From Promethearchaeota archaeon (GTDB lineage Archaea > Asgardarchaeota > Lokiarchaeia > Sigyniarchaeales > SOKP01), in NCBI GenBank assembly GCA_016930515.1, contig JAFGGO010000008.1:1-20541 (forward strand): a stretch of DNA of 20,541 bases. Direction: 5' to 3'. Below, one piece after another: positions 3,233-9,305 of the stretch. The notes below the pieces were generated by a model. The model was not told where the DNA came from. It did no database searches and worked only from the letters and a program-made list of their open reading frames with translations. A program made the translations under genes and the position numbers. The first letter of the stretch is position 1; the number at the start of each line of letters is the position of its first letter.

Positions 3233-4267
3233 ATGAAATTTTTAATTACAGGTGGTTTGGGATTCTTAGGATCCAATCTTTCTCAAAAAGTTCTCCGTGA
3301 GAAAGAAGAAATTATCGTTTTAGATAATTTTTCAAAAATTAATTGTAAAAACAACTTGAAATGGTTGAAAAAAAATGGAAATTTTAAATTAATCAATCAG
3401 GATGTAAGAAACCAAAAAAAAATAGATAATATTATTAAAAATATTATCCCTGATGTAATCTTTCACACGGCTGGCCAAACTGCGGTTACAAAATCGATTG
3501 AAAATCCTCGAAAGGATTTTGAAATTAATGTTGGTGGAACAATTAATCTGCTTGAAGCCATTAGAAAATATTCTCCTCAAACAATCCTCGTATATTCTTC
3601 AACAAATAAAGTGTATGGTGATTTAAAATACCTGTCCCTCTCTGAGGGGGATATGCGATATCATTTAAATAATTCTCAAGATGGGTTGGATGAAACTTTA
3701 AAACTAGATCTTCAAACCCCTTACGGATGTTCAAAAGGAGCTGCTGATCAATATGTTTTGGATTATGCAAGCATTTACGGTTTAAGAACGACTGTTTTTC
3801 GACATTCTGCCATCTACGGTCCAAGACAGTATCCATCATTTGACCAGGGGTGGGTAAGTTGGTTCTGCTTAAAAGGTTTGGAAATAAAATATAAAATTGA
3901 AAAGGATAAAATTAAGGTATTAGGAAACGGGAAACAAGTAAGGGATGTCTTATATGTGGAAGATGCGGTAAATCTCTATTTTAATGCAATCAGTAAAATC
4001 GAAAACATAAAGGGAATACCCTTAAATATTGGTGGTGGTTTTGAAAATAGTTTATCCATTCTTGAATTAATTTCTTTCTTAGAAAAAGAGCTTAATATTG
4101 ACATAAATTACGAAATTGATCAAGAAAGAGAGGCCGATCAAAAATATTTCGTTTCAGAGAATAAAAAAGTAAAAGATATTTTGGATTGGAAGCCAAAAAT
4201 ATCATTTCATCACGGTTTAAAAAAATTAATAATATGGTTGGAATCAAACCTTAAATCGGATATTTAG
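3233..4267 (+). CDS. rfbE: CDP-paratose 2-epimerase (CDP-tyvelose epimerase)-like SDR
   Basis: TGGLGFLGSNL, AGQTAVTKSIENPRKDFEINVGGT, YSSTNKVYGDL, TPYGCSKGAADQYVLDYA, FRHSAIYG, DQGWVSWF, GNGKQVRDVL: motifs characteristic of RfbE/Tyv. Confidence 0.85.
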   Translation: MKFLITGGLGFLGSNLSQKVLREKEEIIVLDNFSKINCKNNLKWLKKNGNFKLINQDVRNQKKIDNIIKNIIPDVIFHTAGQTAVTKSIENPRKDFEINVGGTINLLEAIRKYSPQTILVYSSTNKVYGDLKYLSLSEGDMRYHLNNSQDGLDETLKLDLQTPYGCSKGAADQYVLDYASIYGLRTTVFRHSAIYGPRQYPSFDQGWVSWFCLKGLEIKYKIEKDKIKVLGNGKQVRDVLYVEDAVNLYFNAISKIENIKGIPLNIGGGFENSLSILELISFLEKELNIDINYEIDQEREADQKYFVSENKKVKDILDWKPKISFHHGLKKLIIWLESNLKSDI

Positions 4268-7200
4268 TATGTAGAATTTCTATTCTAATAATGATCTCCC
4301 TATTACGAATTTTAAACGAAAATTTCTTCCCTTTTTTTGCTTTTCCATACTTTTCAATTCCACATTCTTCCTTGATATAATTAATAAACTCTGGATTGAG
4401 TTCTTTTTCGATGTCGTAATTGTTTTGAATGTTTACAATAAGTCTTTCTTTTCCTCGTTCGAGACCTAGATCCTTGCGTGCGTTCTGAAGATAGCGCGTA
4501 ATCTCTCGAGCGTCGCCTTCTTTAAATAAATCATCGTCGAGCTCAGAATTGATGAGGATGATTCCCTTTGGTAAGATTTTTACGGCATAGGGTTCCTTGG
4601 CGTTTTGATCTATCTGAAGGTGCTCCTTGGTTATTTCATATTCATTTCCGTCGAGCTCGAGCGTGAATTTGCCTTTTGCCATGCTTTTCTTTATCTCGTC
4701 GATACCCATTGATTCCAAGTGTTTTTGGACCTTAAGACGATTCTTTTTGAAGTCCTTTCCGAGATTTCCAGTGTTTAGCACGAGAGATTCTTCATAGAAG
4801 GATTTGGCTTTTTTTTCCGGAACGAAAGTGAGCCCCTTCACGTTTAATTCTTCCTTTATCAAGGATTCGAACTTTTTTACGATGTTTTTTTCTTCAGTTT
4901 TGAAATACAACAAGTACTCTTTTATTGGCTGTCGCGTGTTTATCCTCACTTTATCCCGAAGCCCTCGCAGTTCCTGAACCAAGCTCATGACGAATTCCAT
5001 TTCTTCAATTAACGACTCGTTAATTAAATTTTCTACTGGTTCTGGAAACTCTACTAAATGCACGGATTTTGTTTTTTTATTGTAATTAAAGGACTCTTGG
5101 AGCTGTAGGAAAATTCTTTCCGTTAAAAACGGAAGAAACGGAGCCATTAAGCGATTTAAAATGTCGATTGTATAATAGGTAACATTATATGCGTCTTGAT
5201 CCTTGTTTAGAAACCGCTTTCTCGACAAGCGAAGGTACCAATTGCTCAAGTCGTTGATAACAAATGTTTGAATAGCATCAGCAGAATTGAATATCAAATA
5301 ATCGTCGAGGTATAGTTTGACCTGCTTGACAAGCTGATTTATTTTTGCAATCAACCATAAATCTAAGGAGTTATTTAGCTTATCGGGATCGAAGTTTAAA
5401 TCTGGAACAATTTCGTTATTTATAGTGTTGTTAAAAAACAAGATAAAGGAATTATAATATTTCGTAATGAATTGCGAGATGACATACTTGATTGCGTCAA
5501 CACTCAGCCGCTTTTCCTTGTGGGGGGGTCCTGAAACGTAATACAACCATCGCAAGGCGTCCGATCCCTGCTCGTTGAAAATGAACCATGGATCGATGGT
5601 ATTTCCTAAGCTCTTGCTCATCTTCCTGCCTTCGCCGTCCAAAACGATACCGTTTACGACAACGTTCTTGTACGCATTTTTGTTGAACACGGCGGTTCCG
5701 ATGGCGTGCATCGTGTAAAACCACCCGCGAGTCTGGTCCATTCCTTCGGCTATAAAGTCTACTGGATAGGCAATTTCTTTATCGATAAGGTCCTTGTTTT
5801 CGAATGGATAGTGATATTGGGCAAAAGGAGCTGCTCCCGAATCGTACCAGCAATCTATGACCTCAGGGGTTCGTCTCATCTCTTTTTTGCATTTTGGACA
5901 CGATATCAGCACATCGTCGATCATTGGTTTGTGGTAATCTTCGAGCTCTACATTACCAATTGAGAGTTGTTTTAATTCTTCAAACGATTCCACGCAGAGC
6001 TCGTGTCCGCAAGAATGGTTCGAGCAAGACCAGATGGGTAATGGCGTTCCCCAGAATCGCTCCCTCGAGATGGCCCAATCGCGAGCGTTGTCTAAAAAGT
6101 TTCCAAAACGACCCGTCCCGATTAATTTTGGAACCCAATTTATTTTCTCGTTGTTGTCCAATAAATCTTCCCTGAAGCGCGACATCTCGATGAACCACGA
6201 TTCCCTTGCGTAATACAACAAAGCCCGATTACATCGCCAACAGAACGGGTAATCGTGAGAGTACTTGCGAGTGTCGAGTAGCTTTCCCATTTTTTTCAAT
6301 TCGCCTACCACCCACTTGTCCGTGTCCCAAACGCCTTTCTTGCCCATATCCTCTCGATGGATCTTGAAATATTTGCCAGAAAGCTCCGGAATCGAGTCGT
6401 CAAAAAAGCCTTTTTCGTTTATAGGTTGCACGAATGGAAGATCGTATTCCAACATCACGTTGTAGTCGTCCTCTCCGAACGCTGGCGCAATATGAACGAA
6501 TCCCGTGGAAATGTTATCTGTCGTGGGTTCTGTCGAGACGTAGTCCGCGTTTACCACTATGAAACCGTTCTCATCTGCCACTTCGTTAAAATACGGAAAT
6601 AACGGCTCGTATTTCTTATACAATAAGTCAGAACCGTAAAATTCCTTTTCTTTTTCGTAATTTCCCTCTCCGAGCACCGTGTTTAGCAAATTGGTCGCGA
6701 TTATATATTTTTCGTTTTTGTATTTCACGAGCGAATAGCGACTGTCGGCGTTAGCCGCTAATGCTACATTGCTCAATAAGGTCCAAGGCGTCGTGGTCCA
6801 CGCAACGATTTTTACGTCTTTAAAATTGGGATCAAGAAGCCTGAACGTGATGTAGACTGTCTCTTCTTCCACTTCCTCGTACCCTTGGGAAACCTCGTGG
6901 GAAGACAGGGGCGTCTCGCAGCGAGGGCAATACGGCACGACCTTCTTGCCCTTGTAAATCCTCTTTTTATCATAGATTTGCTTTAACGACCACCACACGG
7001 ATTCGATAAAGTAATTCTCGCAAGTGATATACGGATGGTCCATGTCTAACCAGAAAGCCATTCGCTTGGTAAGCTTTTCCCATTCCGATACGTATTTGAA
7101 CACGCTCTCGCGGCACTTTTTGTTAAAATTATCGATACCGTAATCTAAAATGTCCTTTTTCGTGCTTAAATTTAACGCTTTTTCTACTTCTAACTCGACA

Positions 7201-7448
7201 GGAAGACCGTGGGTGTCCCACCCTGCCTTGCGCGGGACCCAATACCCATCCATGAATTTATACCTTAAGATGATGTCTTTTATGCTCCGTGCGTACACGT
7301 GGTGGATCCCCGGCATGCCGTTCGCCGTTGGAGGCCCTTCCGTGAATTGAAACCTTCCTTTAGGCTTTTTAGCGTCGAGAATTAATTTAATGATCGAAAT
7401 TGAATCCCAATAATCCAATATTTTTACTTCCTCTTCTGGTAAAGGCAT
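4251..7448 (-). CDS. ileS: Isoleucine--tRNA ligase (type 2 / archaeal-eukaryote-like IleRS)
   Basis: EGPPTANGMPGIHH (HIGH-equivalent), GWDTHGLPVE, editing domain WTTTPWTL and GFVHIAPAFGEDD, DWAISRERFWGTPLPIW, EGMDQTRGWFY, KMSKSLGN, LSNWYLRLSRKRF; long C-terminal region with AREITRYLQNARKDLGL typical of type 2 IleRS. Confidence 0.97.
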   Translation of the reverse strand: MPLPEEEVKILDYWDSISIIKLILDAKKPKGRFQFTEGPPTANGMPGIHHVYARSIKDIILRYKFMDGYWVPRKAGWDTHGLPVELEVEKALNLSTKKDILDYGIDNFNKKCRESVFKYVSEWEKLTKRMAFWLDMDHPYITCENYFIESVWWSLKQIYDKKRIYKGKKVVPYCPRCETPLSSHEVSQGYEEVEEETVYITFRLLDPNFKDVKIVAWTTTPWTLLSNVALAANADSRYSLVKYKNEKYIIATNLLNTVLGEGNYEKEKEFYGSDLLYKKYEPLFPYFNEVADENGFIVVNADYVSTEPTTDNISTGFVHIAPAFGEDDYNVMLEYDLPFVQPINEKGFFDDSIPELSGKYFKIHREDMGKKGVWDTDKWVVGELKKMGKLLDTRKYSHDYPFCWRCNRALLYYARESWFIEMSRFREDLLDNNEKINWVPKLIGTGRFGNFLDNARDWAISRERFWGTPLPIWSCSNHSCGHELCVESFEELKQLSIGNVELEDYHKPMIDDVLISCPKCKKEMRRTPEVIDCWYDSGAAPFAQYHYPFENKDLIDKEIAYPVDFIAEGMDQTRGWFYTMHAIGTAVFNKNAYKNVVVNGIVLDGEGRKMSKSLGNTIDPWFIFNEQGSDALRWLYYVSGPPHKEKRLSVDAIKYVISQFITKYYNSFILFFNNTINNEIVPDLNFDPDKLNNSLDLWLIAKINQLVKQVKLYLDDYLIFNSADAIQTFVINDLSNWYLRLSRKRFLNKDQDAYNVTYYTIDILNRLMAPFLPFLTERIFLQLQESFNYNKKTKSVHLVEFPEPVENLINESLIEEMEFVMSLVQELRGLRDKVRINTRQPIKEYLLYFKTEEKNIVKKFESLIKEELNVKGLTFVPEKKAKSFYEESLVLNTGNLGKDFKKNRLKVQKHLESMGIDEIKKSMAKGKFTLELDGNEYEITKEHLQIDQNAKEPYAVKILPKGIILINSELDDDLFKEGDAREITRYLQNARKDLGLERGKERLIVNIQNNYDIEKELNPEFINYIKEECGIEKYGKAKKGKKFSFKIRNREIIIRIEILHTKYPI

Positions 7449-7622: not shown

Positions 7623-9305
7623 CTAAGGCATCATGTCCGAAGGGGGCGTCTTGAGACAGAATCCACACTTTCCAAAAGAAATGATCGTTTGGTTCCAACA
7701 ATGCTCGTGATACGAGCGTTCGCAATAGGGACATTGAATGTGGCAAGATTTGTCCCCGGCGATCTGATTTGAACACGATGGACACTCTATTTTATGGCAA
7801 ATAACACACGATACTACTGAAACTTCGAAAATATTGTTTGATATTGCGTCAAAAAGGTCGACAAGGTAGGTAAACGGCGTCCACTTGTCGAAGAACCGTT
7901 TAAAGGAGGATTGCAGGTTGTTTTTTATTTTATCGCGAGACTCGATTTCGAAATCGTTTAAGACCTTGATTTCGGGCAGTTTCAAGGGGTATTCTCTCGG
8001 CAGAAAAATCTCGAATTGAAATACGATATCCTCGGACTGCATCTTGCCTTTCATGTCAATTCTCAGGCTCGATGTGGCGTGGTCGTATTGCAGGTCCTTG
8101 TAGTGATCCCTTAACAAAACAATTTCAAAATTAATACGGGAATTCTTGTCTACTAACCACGAGATTTCTCGAACGATCTCTACAGGTTCAGTTTCTCCAT
8201 CTCTCCAGTTCTTATAAGCATTGAGGTTTTTCACGGGTATTTGGATGATGTCCTGCAATTCTCCAGTTAAATTTATAATAGGAGGTTTTGGATATGGGCT
8301 TAAATCGATTTCCATAAAATAATTCTTGAAACCGTAAGTTAATAAGTGAACCTTGAGCCGAGCAACGCTCTCTGGAACGATATCGCATTTATATTCGCCC
8401 GTGATTTTCTTTGCTTCTTGTTCGATATCCTGAACAAAAAACAATCTCGCTTCGAGGTCGTGCAGGGCGTCAACAATATGGGGGGGATTATTTTCGTTCC
8501 AAGTGTTTATAGTTTTTAATTCTTGATCAGGGATTCCTAATATGGACTTTAAACCTTCTGGGAGCAATATAGTTGGTTTTTGAGGATAATTTGAGAAATC
8601 TACACCGATAATAAAAGTTTTAGTGATAGTTATTGTAATGTAAATATTGATATCCGCCCTGTTTTTCCCTCTTTGATCAAACGCGTAAGCCTGTTGGATC
8701 AAGCCAAGTTCCGTTTCAATGGCTAAATCAGGTTCCTGATTGTCCGAAAGATCCTGCTCTCTTGTTAGACTTTCTGAAATTGTTTTTGATGGTTCATTTG
8801 TATCCGACCTATCAACCTCAGAGTAATTAAGAATGTCGTAATCTCTATGAACATTTGAAGGAGTAATATAATCACCTTCATGTACATCAGAGGGGTACGC
8901 ATTCAAATCAGGAGTTATGTAATCTTCGGTTTCCTGAGAACCAACAATAATATTAGAATTATTTTTATAATCTTCAATAATTTCCTCTACGACTATAGAG
9001 CCTTGGATTGAATCATAAATTTTTCCTTTAAGCTCGTCCATTATATCTACGACACTTGAACTTGGGTTCCATTCATCTAAGCGTTCTAATCGAAAATCTC
9101 CAAGTAACTCCTTTATCTGATCGTGAAAAATAAAGCGGGGTGGTGATTCAGGGAAGTCTTCGTCAAATTTCACTTCTAACTCGAACTTTACATCGGGGGT
9201 TTCTTGCACGAAGCCAAACAAGTGAGCGATGTTGCCAGATACCATCCAAAACGAATATTTAGCAGCAATTTTCTGAGCTTCTTTCAGGATTCTTTGGTGG
9301 TCCAT
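7623..9305 (-). CDS. Tandem UBC-like/RWD (inactive E2-fold) repeats plus C-terminal C4HC3 RING finger; putative FANCL/listerin-like E3 ubiquitin ligase
   Basis: Four ~95-aa units, each with a (F/Y)PxxP(P)-type turn (FPESPP, YPQKP, YPKPP, YPLKLP) followed by Trp and a helix (EWNPSSSVVDIMDEL, TWNENNPPHIVDALHDL, NWRDGETEPVEIVREI, KWTPFTYLVDLFDAI). C-terminal CVIC...CPYC-x4-H-x2-C...CGFC. Confidence 0.75.
   Translation of the reverse strand: MDHQRILKEAQKIAAKYSFWMVSGNIAHLFGFVQETPDVKFELEVKFDEDFPESPPRFIFHDQIKELLGDFRLERLDEWNPSSSVVDIMDELKGKIYDSIQGSIVVEEIIEDYKNNSNIIVGSQETEDYITPDLNAYPSDVHEGDYITPSNVHRDYDILNYSEVDRSDTNEPSKTISESLTREQDLSDNQEPDLAIETELGLIQQAYAFDQRGKNRADINIYITITITKTFIIGVDFSNYPQKPTILLPEGLKSILGIPDQELKTINTWNENNPPHIVDALHDLEARLFFVQDIEQEAKKITGEYKCDIVPESVARLKVHLLTYGFKNYFMEIDLSPYPKPPIINLTGELQDIIQIPVKNLNAYKNWRDGETEPVEIVREISWLVDKNSRINFEIVLLRDHYKDLQYDHATSSLRIDMKGKMQSEDIVFQFEIFLPREYPLKLPEIKVLNDFEIESRDKIKNNLQSSFKRFFDKWTPFTYLVDLFDAISNNIFEVSVVSCVICHKIECPSCSNQIAGDKSCHIQCPYCERSYHEHCWNQTIISFGKCGFCLKTPPSDMMP

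Follow-up and report, generated by a model that had tools for sequence, protein, structure and literature searches.

The window analysed here is a 20,541-nucleotide stretch of archaeal DNA. On its minus strand, positions 7623-9305 hold a real open reading frame for a protein of 560 amino acids plus stop codon, P0001, lying between an IleRS gene and sugar-nucleotide genes. The original prediction had these coordinates right and had named an Asgard host, an assignment with which the assembly names of the homologues and their class assignment agree. The ATG start matches the N-terminus of the homologues, 306 of which are full length at 50-65% identity. All of these full-length relatives come from Asgard (Lokiarchaeia-type) assemblies, and we found near-full-length or strong matches in only one class of the phylum. 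Within its source genome, P0001 is a single-copy, conserved protein. Its chain is made up of four repeats that resemble ubiquitin-conjugating (E2) enzymes stripped of their active site, a tether between the first and second of these, and a C-terminal zinc finger.

The four repeats are assigned to the UBC/RWD fold class by different routes: structure places repeat 4 there, sequence does so for repeats 1 and 4, and repeats 2 and 3 are tied in by their likeness to repeat 1. Repeat 1 (aa 1-100; 9006-9305, minus strand, as for all features below) is predicted by Pfam UQ_con and by hhalign to the genome's E2 to be a UEV-like dead E2 fold from which the catalytic loop between HPN and Cys has been deleted. 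Repeats 2 (aa 195-290; 8436-8723) and 3 (aa 291-388; 8142-8435) appear as RWD/UBC-like folds in the AF2 model and by hhalign, each with a YPxxP motif, the former without Cys and the latter without a conserved one. Repeat 4 (aa 389-495; 7821-8141), identified by Pfam RWD, VIA and profile comparison, has a canonical RWD/UBC fold with a YPxxxP motif and reads W-T-P-F against the W-S-P-A of E2. We read the conservation of hallmark residues and zinc ligands from a 38-sequence alignment of relatives, in which F51-P52...P56...W79 of repeat 1, P241-P244...W269 of repeat 2, P339-P342...W367 of repeat 3 and Y439-P440...P444...W475 of repeat 4 are all invariant.

In the per-domain Pfam check proposed with the original prediction, UQ_con scores 34.8 bits on P0001 (cut-off 27; best stretch 39-117) and RWD scores 35 bits on repeat 4 (cut-off 22.8). 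Comparison of the repeat sub-alignments with one another by hhalign links repeat 1 to repeat 2 (97.1%, E 6e-11), repeat 2 to repeat 3 (97.8%, E 1e-12), repeat 1 to repeat 3 (93%) and, at 68% and E 5e-5, repeat 1 to repeat 4; repeats 2 and 3 give no significant match to repeat 4 in this comparison. The prediction of four repeats of this class thus holds, on invariant hallmarks, two Pfam models above cut-off and the hhalign links among repeats 1-3. Structural evidence on P0001 comes from AF2 models throughout, and the model of the repeats covers aa 195-560 (366 residues), with repeat 1 outside it. Repeat 2 is modelled as a helix, strands and a long helix, repeat 3 has the same order of secondary structure, and pLDDT is about 90 in both. 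Repeat 4 is matched by VIA to the RWD of RNF25 (Z 11.9), RWDD1 (11.7), the TSG101 UEV (11.4) and E2s (about 11), and its profile matches E2s of the PDB at E about 1e-5; repeats 3 and 4 together align to the tandem RWD of Knl1 (VIA Z 10.0, 170 aligned).

Active E2 enzymes carry their catalytic Cys about 8 residues past an HPN motif, and no repeat of P0001 has this combination. HPN is absent from all four repeats, as had been claimed from the sequence, and the only Cys outside the finger, C307, is not conserved. Aligned by hhalign to the genome's active E2 family, repeat 1 (92.3%, E 5.6e-7) skips the active-site loop, and repeat 4 (76%, E 2.4e-5) lacks both HPN and Cys; relative to the E2 P0238, repeat 1 has lost this loop and repeat 4 has other sequence in its place.

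Between repeats 1 and 2 lies an acidic linker (aa 101-194; 8724-9005) that is gap-rich and variable in length in the family alignment and is presumably flexible, in keeping with the earlier suggestion of a UEV-like N-terminal module on a flexible tether. Embedded in it is a short conserved motif (aa 126-149; 8859-8930; E-E-Y-I-T-P-D-L-N-A-Y-P... then I-T-P-S), in which T131, P132, D133 and P138 are invariant across the family alignment and Y137 nearly so. At the other end of the protein, a Pro-rich tail (aa 555-560 and the stop codon; 7623-7643) is kept in many relatives and missing in others.

The domain at aa 496-554 (7644-7820) is identified as a RING finger by AF2, VIA, Foldseek, profile comparison and ligand co-occurrence. 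It is the most conserved part of P0001 and is modelled with pLDDT above 90, with a helix that begins at ligands 5 and 6. When the RING alone was compared with 48,161 PDB representatives, all 50 top VIA matches were RING or U-box domains from established or putative E3 ligases, so that a PHD or other non-RING finger, named beforehand as an outcome that would count against the prediction, is not what the model shows; one of the 50, PHF7, carries the name PHD finger. Ltn1 is the best rigid-body match (Z 7.1, leading the row below it by more than 1, and again at 6.1), and FANCL (4ccg_Y, Z 5.5 at rmsd 2.1 Å), Rbx2 (5.2) and APC11 (4.9) score lower, while the best Foldseek match is APC11 at 33% identity. 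The finger's profile matches Arkadia/RNF165 (E 6.5e-5) and RBX1 (E 3.5e-4 over 41-96, nearly the whole finger), and a profile of repeat 4 plus RING matches RBX1 at E 8e-5; judged by sequence profile, the finger is closer to RING-H2/RBX1 than to FANCL. A phmmer search of PDB sequences with the RING by itself gave no significant match (best E 0.21; APC11 0.59), and its alignment makes the register with APC11 visible. We discarded a designed C2H2 finger array at the top of the RING-only profile list as a repeat artefact of C-P-x-C-G-K words. The Pfam finger model matched by most relatives is Prok-RING_1 (PF14446; 25/55, best E 3.8e-6), which carries no description of fusion to UBC/RWD arrays; its cut-off of 29.1 bits is reached neither by P0001 (13.5 bits whole, 16.2 for the RING alone) nor by the best relative (27.2). 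Ten of the 55 relatives match zf-rbx1 (best E 0.002, 18.8 bits against a cut-off of 31), and zf-ANAPC11 scores 10.6 bits against a cut-off of 25.

The original prediction described a C4HC3 RING. The RING itself stands, and its eight listed ligands are invariant or nearly invariant, but the ligand list was incomplete: C508, C511, C521 and H535 are conserved as well. Among 53 sequences counted, the C508/C511 insert, C521 and H/C535 occur together in 43; the five that truly lack the insert all lack both of the other ligands, and the other five of the 53, which include one fragment, do not fit the pattern. Because these four residues are gained and lost together across relatives, we infer that the finger holds a third zinc site like that of RBX1/APC11. 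The sites would then be C500/C503/H533/C536, C525/C528/C547/C550 and C508/C511/C521/H535. RBX1 (with ligands numbered as in the SCF structure paper), RBX2 and APC11 likewise have C-P-x-C plus one Cys in an insert that separates the first ligand pair from the second, and their third site is completed by a His that lies between ligands 5 and 6 (H-x-H-C). In contrast to these small stand-alone subunits, P0001 has its finger fused to pseudo-E2 folds, has C-x2-C rather than C-x-H at ligands 3 and 4, and lacks the N-terminal cullin-binding strand.

Repeats 2-4 and the RING reproduce the layout of FANCL, a human DNA-repair ligase and the E3 of the Fanconi anaemia core complex, which works with FANCD2/FANCI and UBE2T. 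Like P0001, FANCL has three Cys-less UBC/RWD folds (ELF and double RWD) ahead of a C-terminal RING whose core spacing is C4HC3, and its size is that of our 360-430 aa relatives, which consist of exactly three repeats plus RING; the FGKCGFC motif of the P0001 finger, invariant in close relatives, presumably corresponds to FGxCxxC of FANCL. Our comparison drew on PDB entries 7KZP_L, 9A0J_L, 3K1L, 3ZQS and 4CCG. In the PDB, Foldseek matches aa 195-560 best to full-length FANCL (9a0j_L, E 5.7e-9; 408 columns, target of 373 residues), aligned co-linearly over its whole length as the prediction had implied; other FANCL entries follow at E 3.7e-7 (7kzp_L) and 2.8e-3 (3k1l_B), BRE (BRCC45) ranks third at E 1.5e-6, and listerin comes next at E 3e-5. 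The TM-score to FANCL is 0.26, because the domain orientations differ. In the VIA comparison of the 366-residue model, single-domain matches to repeat 4 fill the 50 rows and FANCL is not among them, an effect of rigid-body Z ranking rather than evidence against the fold match.

The source genome has the remaining parts of a ubiquitin pathway, which the original prediction had asked for: three E2, five ubiquitin-like, four E1-like and seven JAB genes, including a Ub-E1-E2-JAB operon. At least two E2s score 90-95 bits with UQ_con, and the one inspected, P0238, has HPN and a catalytic Cys. The other two E2 genes are on contigs C71 and C187, an E1 gene lies at L033:3123-4370 on the minus strand, and a processing site is predicted in the ubiquitin-like protein P0239. 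A divergent relative, P0143, lies directly after a Ub(GG)-E1-E2-JAB series on the same strand, the only one of the contexts examined with a ubiquitin operon. Beside the four-repeat orthologues we found no ubiquitin genes except a weak UQ_con gene 3 kb off in locus L032, several of the contigs being too short to tell.

We propose that P0001 is probably a RING-type E3 ligase for ubiquitin or a ubiquitin-like protein in the Asgard ubiquitin system, equipped with pseudo-E2 binding modules. The three-zinc RING would recruit a charged E2, and repeats 2-4, joined by long continuous helices into a rigid body, would hold a partner or substrate, a task that falls to the double RWD in FANCL. Repeat 1, on its acidic tether of about 95 residues, would probably bind ubiquitin or E2 non-covalently, the role that Cys-less E2 folds serve in UEV proteins and BRE/BRCC45. 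These proteins (Mms2/Uev1 and the TSG101 UEV among them) resemble P0001 in their E2 folds without catalytic Cys and differ in having no RING and only one to three folds. Ligase activity, E2 binding and the part played by each repeat are predictions. Two invariant residues, the hydrophobic I502 flanked by ligands 1 and 2 and the Trp in the helix (W537), occupy positions at which RINGs usually contact E2. Several observations weigh against a ligase. The P0001 gene is not beside ubiquitin genes, and the genome's own ubiquitin operon already ends in another protein, membrane-anchored and with a RING-like Cys/His-rich tail. The basic residue that serves as a 'linchpin' one position past the last Cys in many active RINGs is found two positions past it here, and some eukaryotic RWD-RING proteins use the RING as a scaffold only.

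The reading that ranks next after a ligase, although we consider it unlikely, is a non-catalytic scaffold. Here the pseudo-E2 array would organise a complex, for example by pairing with a JAB/MPN deubiquitinase in the manner of BRE/BRCC45 within BRISC, and the RING would be only structural or an interaction module. The Pfam BRE model matches repeat 1 at E 3.7e-4 and nine of 55 relatives, BRCC45 is high in the Foldseek list, the genome has seven JAB genes, and RWD-RING proteins of the SEA/GATOR2 complex are among the matches. BRE, however, has no RING, and in P0001 the RING is the part under strongest conservation, down to its usual E2-contact positions. The finger also travels as a module, forming the C-terminal end of beta-helix and LRR proteins in the usual receptor-plus-RING layout, and in P0143 a relative occupies the E3 slot of a ubiquitin operon.

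A role in ribosome-associated quality control, in which RWD and RING would act at the stalled large subunit with an archaeal Rqc2/NEMF homologue and mark nascent chains, seems to us quite unlikely. Here too the resemblance itself is as originally claimed: listerin (PDB 8AAF_e, 9GY4_F, 9OFV_e) has an RWD directly followed by a RING and is the sole eukaryotic E3 that the family profile matches across both domains, in one stretch (yeast Ltn1 1398-1559, E 1.3e-5). Ltn1 also leads the VIA list of the RING, and Foldseek returns listerin among its top matches for each of the two models. Yet listerin is outside the top 60 in profile searches with repeat 4 plus RING and with RING only, and it is a protein of about 1,500-1,800 aa with an N-terminal domain, a long HEAT/ARM solenoid and a single RWD, whereas P0001, at just 560 aa, has neither N-terminal domain nor solenoid, only its four UBC-like folds, linker and RING. 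We know of no third zinc site in listerin. The genome does contain an Rqc2-type NFACT_N gene, but 11 of 14 control genomes match NFACT_N as well, which makes it uninformative here. The IleRS gene adjoins the P0001 gene here and in one relative, is 7 kb off in L030 and is absent in L032, an association that, seen within one family, may be plain synteny.

That P0001 is a true FANCL orthologue or direct ancestor, with site-specific mono-ubiquitination of a DNA-repair clamp as its function, is very unlikely despite the co-linear alignment and the size of the three-repeat relatives. FANCL clusters are the nearest named neighbours in a language-model search (0.87, ahead of listerin at 0.84), a search that was queried with a homologue and serves only as a lead. 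None of the FANCL Pfam models (FANCL_C, FANCL_d1-d3) matches P0001 at E up to 10, and the only one found among relatives, FANCL_d1, stays below its cut-off of 23.8 bits, narrowly in one (21.7) and at 17.1 in another. Against orthology are also the low TM-score, the restriction of strong matches to one class, and the occurrence of tandem RWDs in many unrelated eukaryotic proteins (Knl1, CENP-O/P, Mediator, BRE) that are likewise in the match list. P0001 further departs from FANCL in its fourth, UEV-like N-terminal fold on an acidic tether, its third zinc site in a finger nearer to RING-H2/RBX1 by profile, its archaeal host and its inter-domain geometry. FancD2 had no match in the 94%-complete genome, a weak argument given that the model was silent in all control genomes too.

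We reject as highly improbable the view that the finger belongs to the PHD or another non-RING class and recognises marks on proteins or nucleic acids, in a protein with no part in conjugation. In its favour are a PHD-like C-x2-C-x4-H-x2-C spacing with Trp right after the sixth ligand, weak Pfam matches (PHDvar_NSD at E 0.026, PHD in 4/55 relatives), and PHF7 and MLL3 PHD fingers low in the Foldseek list. The PHD matches are few and of low probability, PHF7 is itself an E2-binding finger, and this view is opposed by the uniform RING/U-box VIA matches, the RING-like helix at ligands 5 and 6 and the significant profile matches to RING-H2 domains and RBX1.

P0001 is thus most likely an undescribed archaeal ubiquitin ligase. 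Asgard archaea are already known to possess ubiquitin, E1, E2, small RING E3s and UEV domains; within the literature we searched, only eukaryotes are described as having ligases that consist of inactive E2 folds in an array. RNF25, whose RWD is the top VIA match of repeat 4, also joins RWD and RING in one chain but has a single N-terminal RWD, a RING well downstream and no repeat array; RWD+zf-C3HC4 clusters are among the language-model neighbours. The original prediction of a candidate ancestor of RWD-RING ligases goes further than our evidence, with no FANCL Pfam model at cut-off and near-full-length relatives in one class only. It is conceivable, if doubtful, that the broader Asgard family of RWD-array RING proteins, with two, three or four pseudo-E2 folds, is the stock of the eukaryotic RWD-RING ligases FANCL, RNF25 and the C-terminal module of listerin, in which case the 'dead E2 plus RING' design of E3 would predate eukaryotes. 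For tracing where FANCL, listerin and kinetochore-type RWD proteins came from, the family supplies a concrete outgroup, and an RBX1/APC11-type third zinc in an archaeal RING would bear on the origin of cullin-type RING subunits. P0001 itself provides a simple, intron-free model of how pseudo-E2 folds and a RING cooperate, and a ligase candidate with cognate E1 and E2 in the same genome. Public runs list no RNA dataset for the gene; the two DNA datasets listed for it are sediment and hot-spring metagenomes.

P0001, the 560-residue protein encoded by the gene at 7623-9305, is most likely a RING E3 ligase, in which four catalytically dead E2/RWD-like repeats precede a C-terminal finger. The gene is a single open frame on the minus strand of an AT-rich window; the plus strand is ruled out, and the start agrees with the N-terminus of relatives. 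The four repeats of the original prediction are real: in the alignment each carries an invariant aromatic-Pro...Pro turn and a helix-starting Trp, and both UQ_con and RWD pass their curated Pfam cut-offs on P0001. Profile-profile comparison gives strong links among repeats 1 (aa 1-100), 2 (aa 195-290) and 3 (aa 291-388) and a weak one between repeat 1 and repeat 4 (aa 389-495). As a reference for active E2s we used an alignment of the genome's own E2 family, in which P0238 carries both the HPN motif and the active-site Cys. Repeat 1 matches this family with 92% probability and a clean gap across the HPN-to-Cys loop; repeat 4 does so with 76% probability and neither HPN nor the catalytic Cys, retaining the E2-type W-(S/T)-P motif. 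Residues 195-560 were modelled with AlphaFold2 from a 40-sequence alignment (mean pLDDT 87.5); the model predicts three helix-strands-helix units with long continuous helices between them. In rigid-body comparison its repeat 4 falls among RWD domains (RNF25, Z 11.9; RWDD1, 11.7), E2 enzymes and the UEV domain of TSG101. We propose that the pseudo-E2 folds would hold substrate, ubiquitin or E2; the tethered UEV-like repeat 1 could plausibly bind ubiquitin or an E2. The otherwise variable acidic linker (aa 101-194) contains a conserved motif at aa 126-149 (window 8859-8930, minus strand; T131, P132, D133 and P138 invariant), which may serve in docking or autoinhibition.

The finger (aa 496-554) had been described as having eight ligands. 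All eight are invariant or nearly so, but the list was incomplete, as C508, C511, C521 and H535 are conserved too. We tabulated ligand co-occurrence in 55 relatives of several architectures, counting the 53 with the first ligand pair. In 43 of 53 sequences the C508/C511 insert is accompanied by C521 and by either His or Cys at 535, both latter ligands are missing from all five sequences truly without the insert, which span at least three different architectures, and five of 53 depart from the pattern, one being a fragment; this is a pattern rather than a statistic, because related sequences are not independent. In RBX1 and APC11, a third zinc site is built from such an insert and a His lying between the fifth and sixth ligands. 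The predicted ligand pattern of the P0001 finger is that of RBX1/APC11, and the searches agree with this comparison: an APC11 alignment has the same ligand register, Foldseek ranks APC11 first for the RING-only model (33% identity), and family profiles match RBX1 over nearly the whole finger (E 8e-5 and 3.5e-4) and Arkadia-type RING-H2 domains (E 6.5e-5). From the RING fold we infer ligase activity, and the roles of the individual repeats are proposed in the same spirit.

Two eukaryotic ligases had been named as likenesses, and the resemblance stands at the level of domain order and not of family membership. A listerin-like role in ribosome quality control is one competing reading: a family profile finds the RWD and RING of yeast Ltn1 in one stretch (E 1.3e-5) and listerin ranks first in rigid-body comparison of the RING model (Z 7.1), but P0001 is missing the listerin solenoid. 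True FANCL orthology would fit the two best PDB matches of the 195-560 model, both full-length FANCL (Foldseek E 5.7e-9 and 3.7e-7), whose alignments span all of both proteins; the TM-scores are low, however, at about 0.26, the domain order being shared and the mutual orientation different. When the homologue P0031 was used in a language-model search, the named clusters closest to it after its own were those of eukaryotic FANCL (0.87, 0.86, 0.85), followed by listerin fragments (0.84); with scores under 0.9 these are leads only. The FANCL RING itself aligns with Z 5.5 and 2.1 A rmsd. All FANCL Pfam models stay below their cut-offs, and the highest-scoring one is FANCL_d1 on repeat 1 of one relative (21.7 versus 23.8 bits). 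FancD2 was not found in the 94%-complete genome, with a model also silent in control genomes. In its predicted layout, and presumably in its mode of action, P0001 resembles FANCL, but these results do not place it in either the FANCL or the listerin family. A BRE-like non-catalytic scaffold would draw on BRCC45/BRE, which comes next in the Foldseek list and is followed by listerin, tandem RWD proteins of the kinetochore and the central domain of FANCL; BRE itself has no RING. Least tenable is a non-RING finger: when all 48,161 PDB representatives were searched by rigid-body comparison, the top 50 were all RING or U-box, one of them (PHF7) named a PHD finger, and the match lists hold few PHD fingers, with weak scores, upholding the predicted RING identity. 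The closest Pfam finger model is Prok-RING_1, with every individually listed score under its cut-off.

The genome supplies the partners expected of a RING E3 ligase, as the original prediction had asked: its 4.0 Mb hold three UQ_con, five ubiquitin-like, four ThiF-type E1-like and seven JAB matches, with Ub-like, E1, E2 and JAB genes in a row on one contig (C26). The last gene of that row (L033:290-1429, minus strand) encodes P0359 (379 residues), in which several membrane helices are predicted and a small Cys/His finger lies at the C-terminus; it also has a stretch rich in Ser, Pro and Lys, gives no Pfam match and looks like a membrane-anchored RING-like E3. The P0001 gene itself lies outside any such operon. 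A divergent family member, P0143, is encoded in one on a JGI metagenome contig (L054:2671-8076), where genes for a ubiquitin-like protein (84 aa, ending GG plus four residues), ThiF E1, UQ_con E2, JAB and P0143 share one strand. P0143 (691 aa) directly follows JAB; its four repeats and RING are preceded by an extra RING-like finger at the N-terminus. PheRS beta lies upstream of this operon.

A word-indexed search returned 306 relatives of P0001, the best 120 of them full-length at 50-65% identity; the named ones come from Asgard assemblies and are labelled 'hypothetical', 'E2 variant' or 'ubiquitin-protein ligase'. When whole genomes were searched with P0001, 49 of the 68 belonging to the window's own family gave strong matches. 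Searching with the family profile extended near-full-length matches to sister families within the order and class but to no further family in the phylum, and matches beyond that class were to single domains only. In the outer families of the class there are two or three paralogues, 370-480 residues long and without repeat 1. Some close homologues (55-58% identity) carry the submitter labels Hod-, Thor- or Odinarchaeota, which look unreliable because strong matches in the genome searches fall in one class only; a spread over those lineages is unsupported by the genome-based distribution.

Parts of P0001 recur elsewhere. The repeat-2-like domain (aa 195-290) is found by itself in many Asgard proteins, 160-760 residues long, that otherwise lack annotation (P0197-P0237; G294:C172, G135:C59 and others), most without Pfam matches. 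E3s usually combine a recognition domain with a RING, and the three-zinc finger also ends beta-helix (NosD-like; P0168-P0171, P0177) and leucine-rich-repeat (P0192) proteins at 45-60% identity; a second finger protein of the window's own genome (275 aa; L036:2352-3179, contig C32) has it near the N-terminus. Judged by these sequence contexts, the finger is a mobile module. In another family of the phylum (f21), a 299-codon frame (L046:591-1487, minus strand; also L047) combines a pair of FPxxPP...W repeats with a two-zinc C4HC3 finger that lacks the third-site insert and has C-x4-C-x4-H-x2-C spacing, reminiscent of that of FANCL. It is a predicted double-RWD plus RING protein outside the class holding the four-repeat form.

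We found no description of the four-dead-E2 plus RING family in the literature searched on Asgard archaea or Lokiarchaeota with FANCL, listerin, RWD or RING. FANCL and RWD go unmentioned in the main text of two recent structure-based surveys of Asgard proteins, and a single Asgard RWD-like sequence is reported to lie at the base of eukaryotic RWDs (PMC6601020). New here are the table of ligand co-occurrence, the RBX1 profile matches that reach significance, the catalytic-loop deletion in repeat 1 relative to the genome's own E2, the class-level distribution, and the two-repeat RWD-RING protein in another Asgard family.

In the window, the P0001 gene has the isoleucyl-tRNA synthetase gene (4251-7448, minus strand) directly downstream and a run of sugar-nucleotide/glycan genes on its other side. 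That synthetase is also directly downstream at one related locus (L031) and 7 kb off at another (L030), and glycan, sulfation and sugar-nucleotide genes surround the orthologue in all three relatives examined, a conservation that may be plain synteny. G+C content is 0.40-0.46 at 5001-7000, over the synthetase gene, and 0.37-0.40 in the P0001 gene itself, compared with 0.26-0.32 in most of the window.
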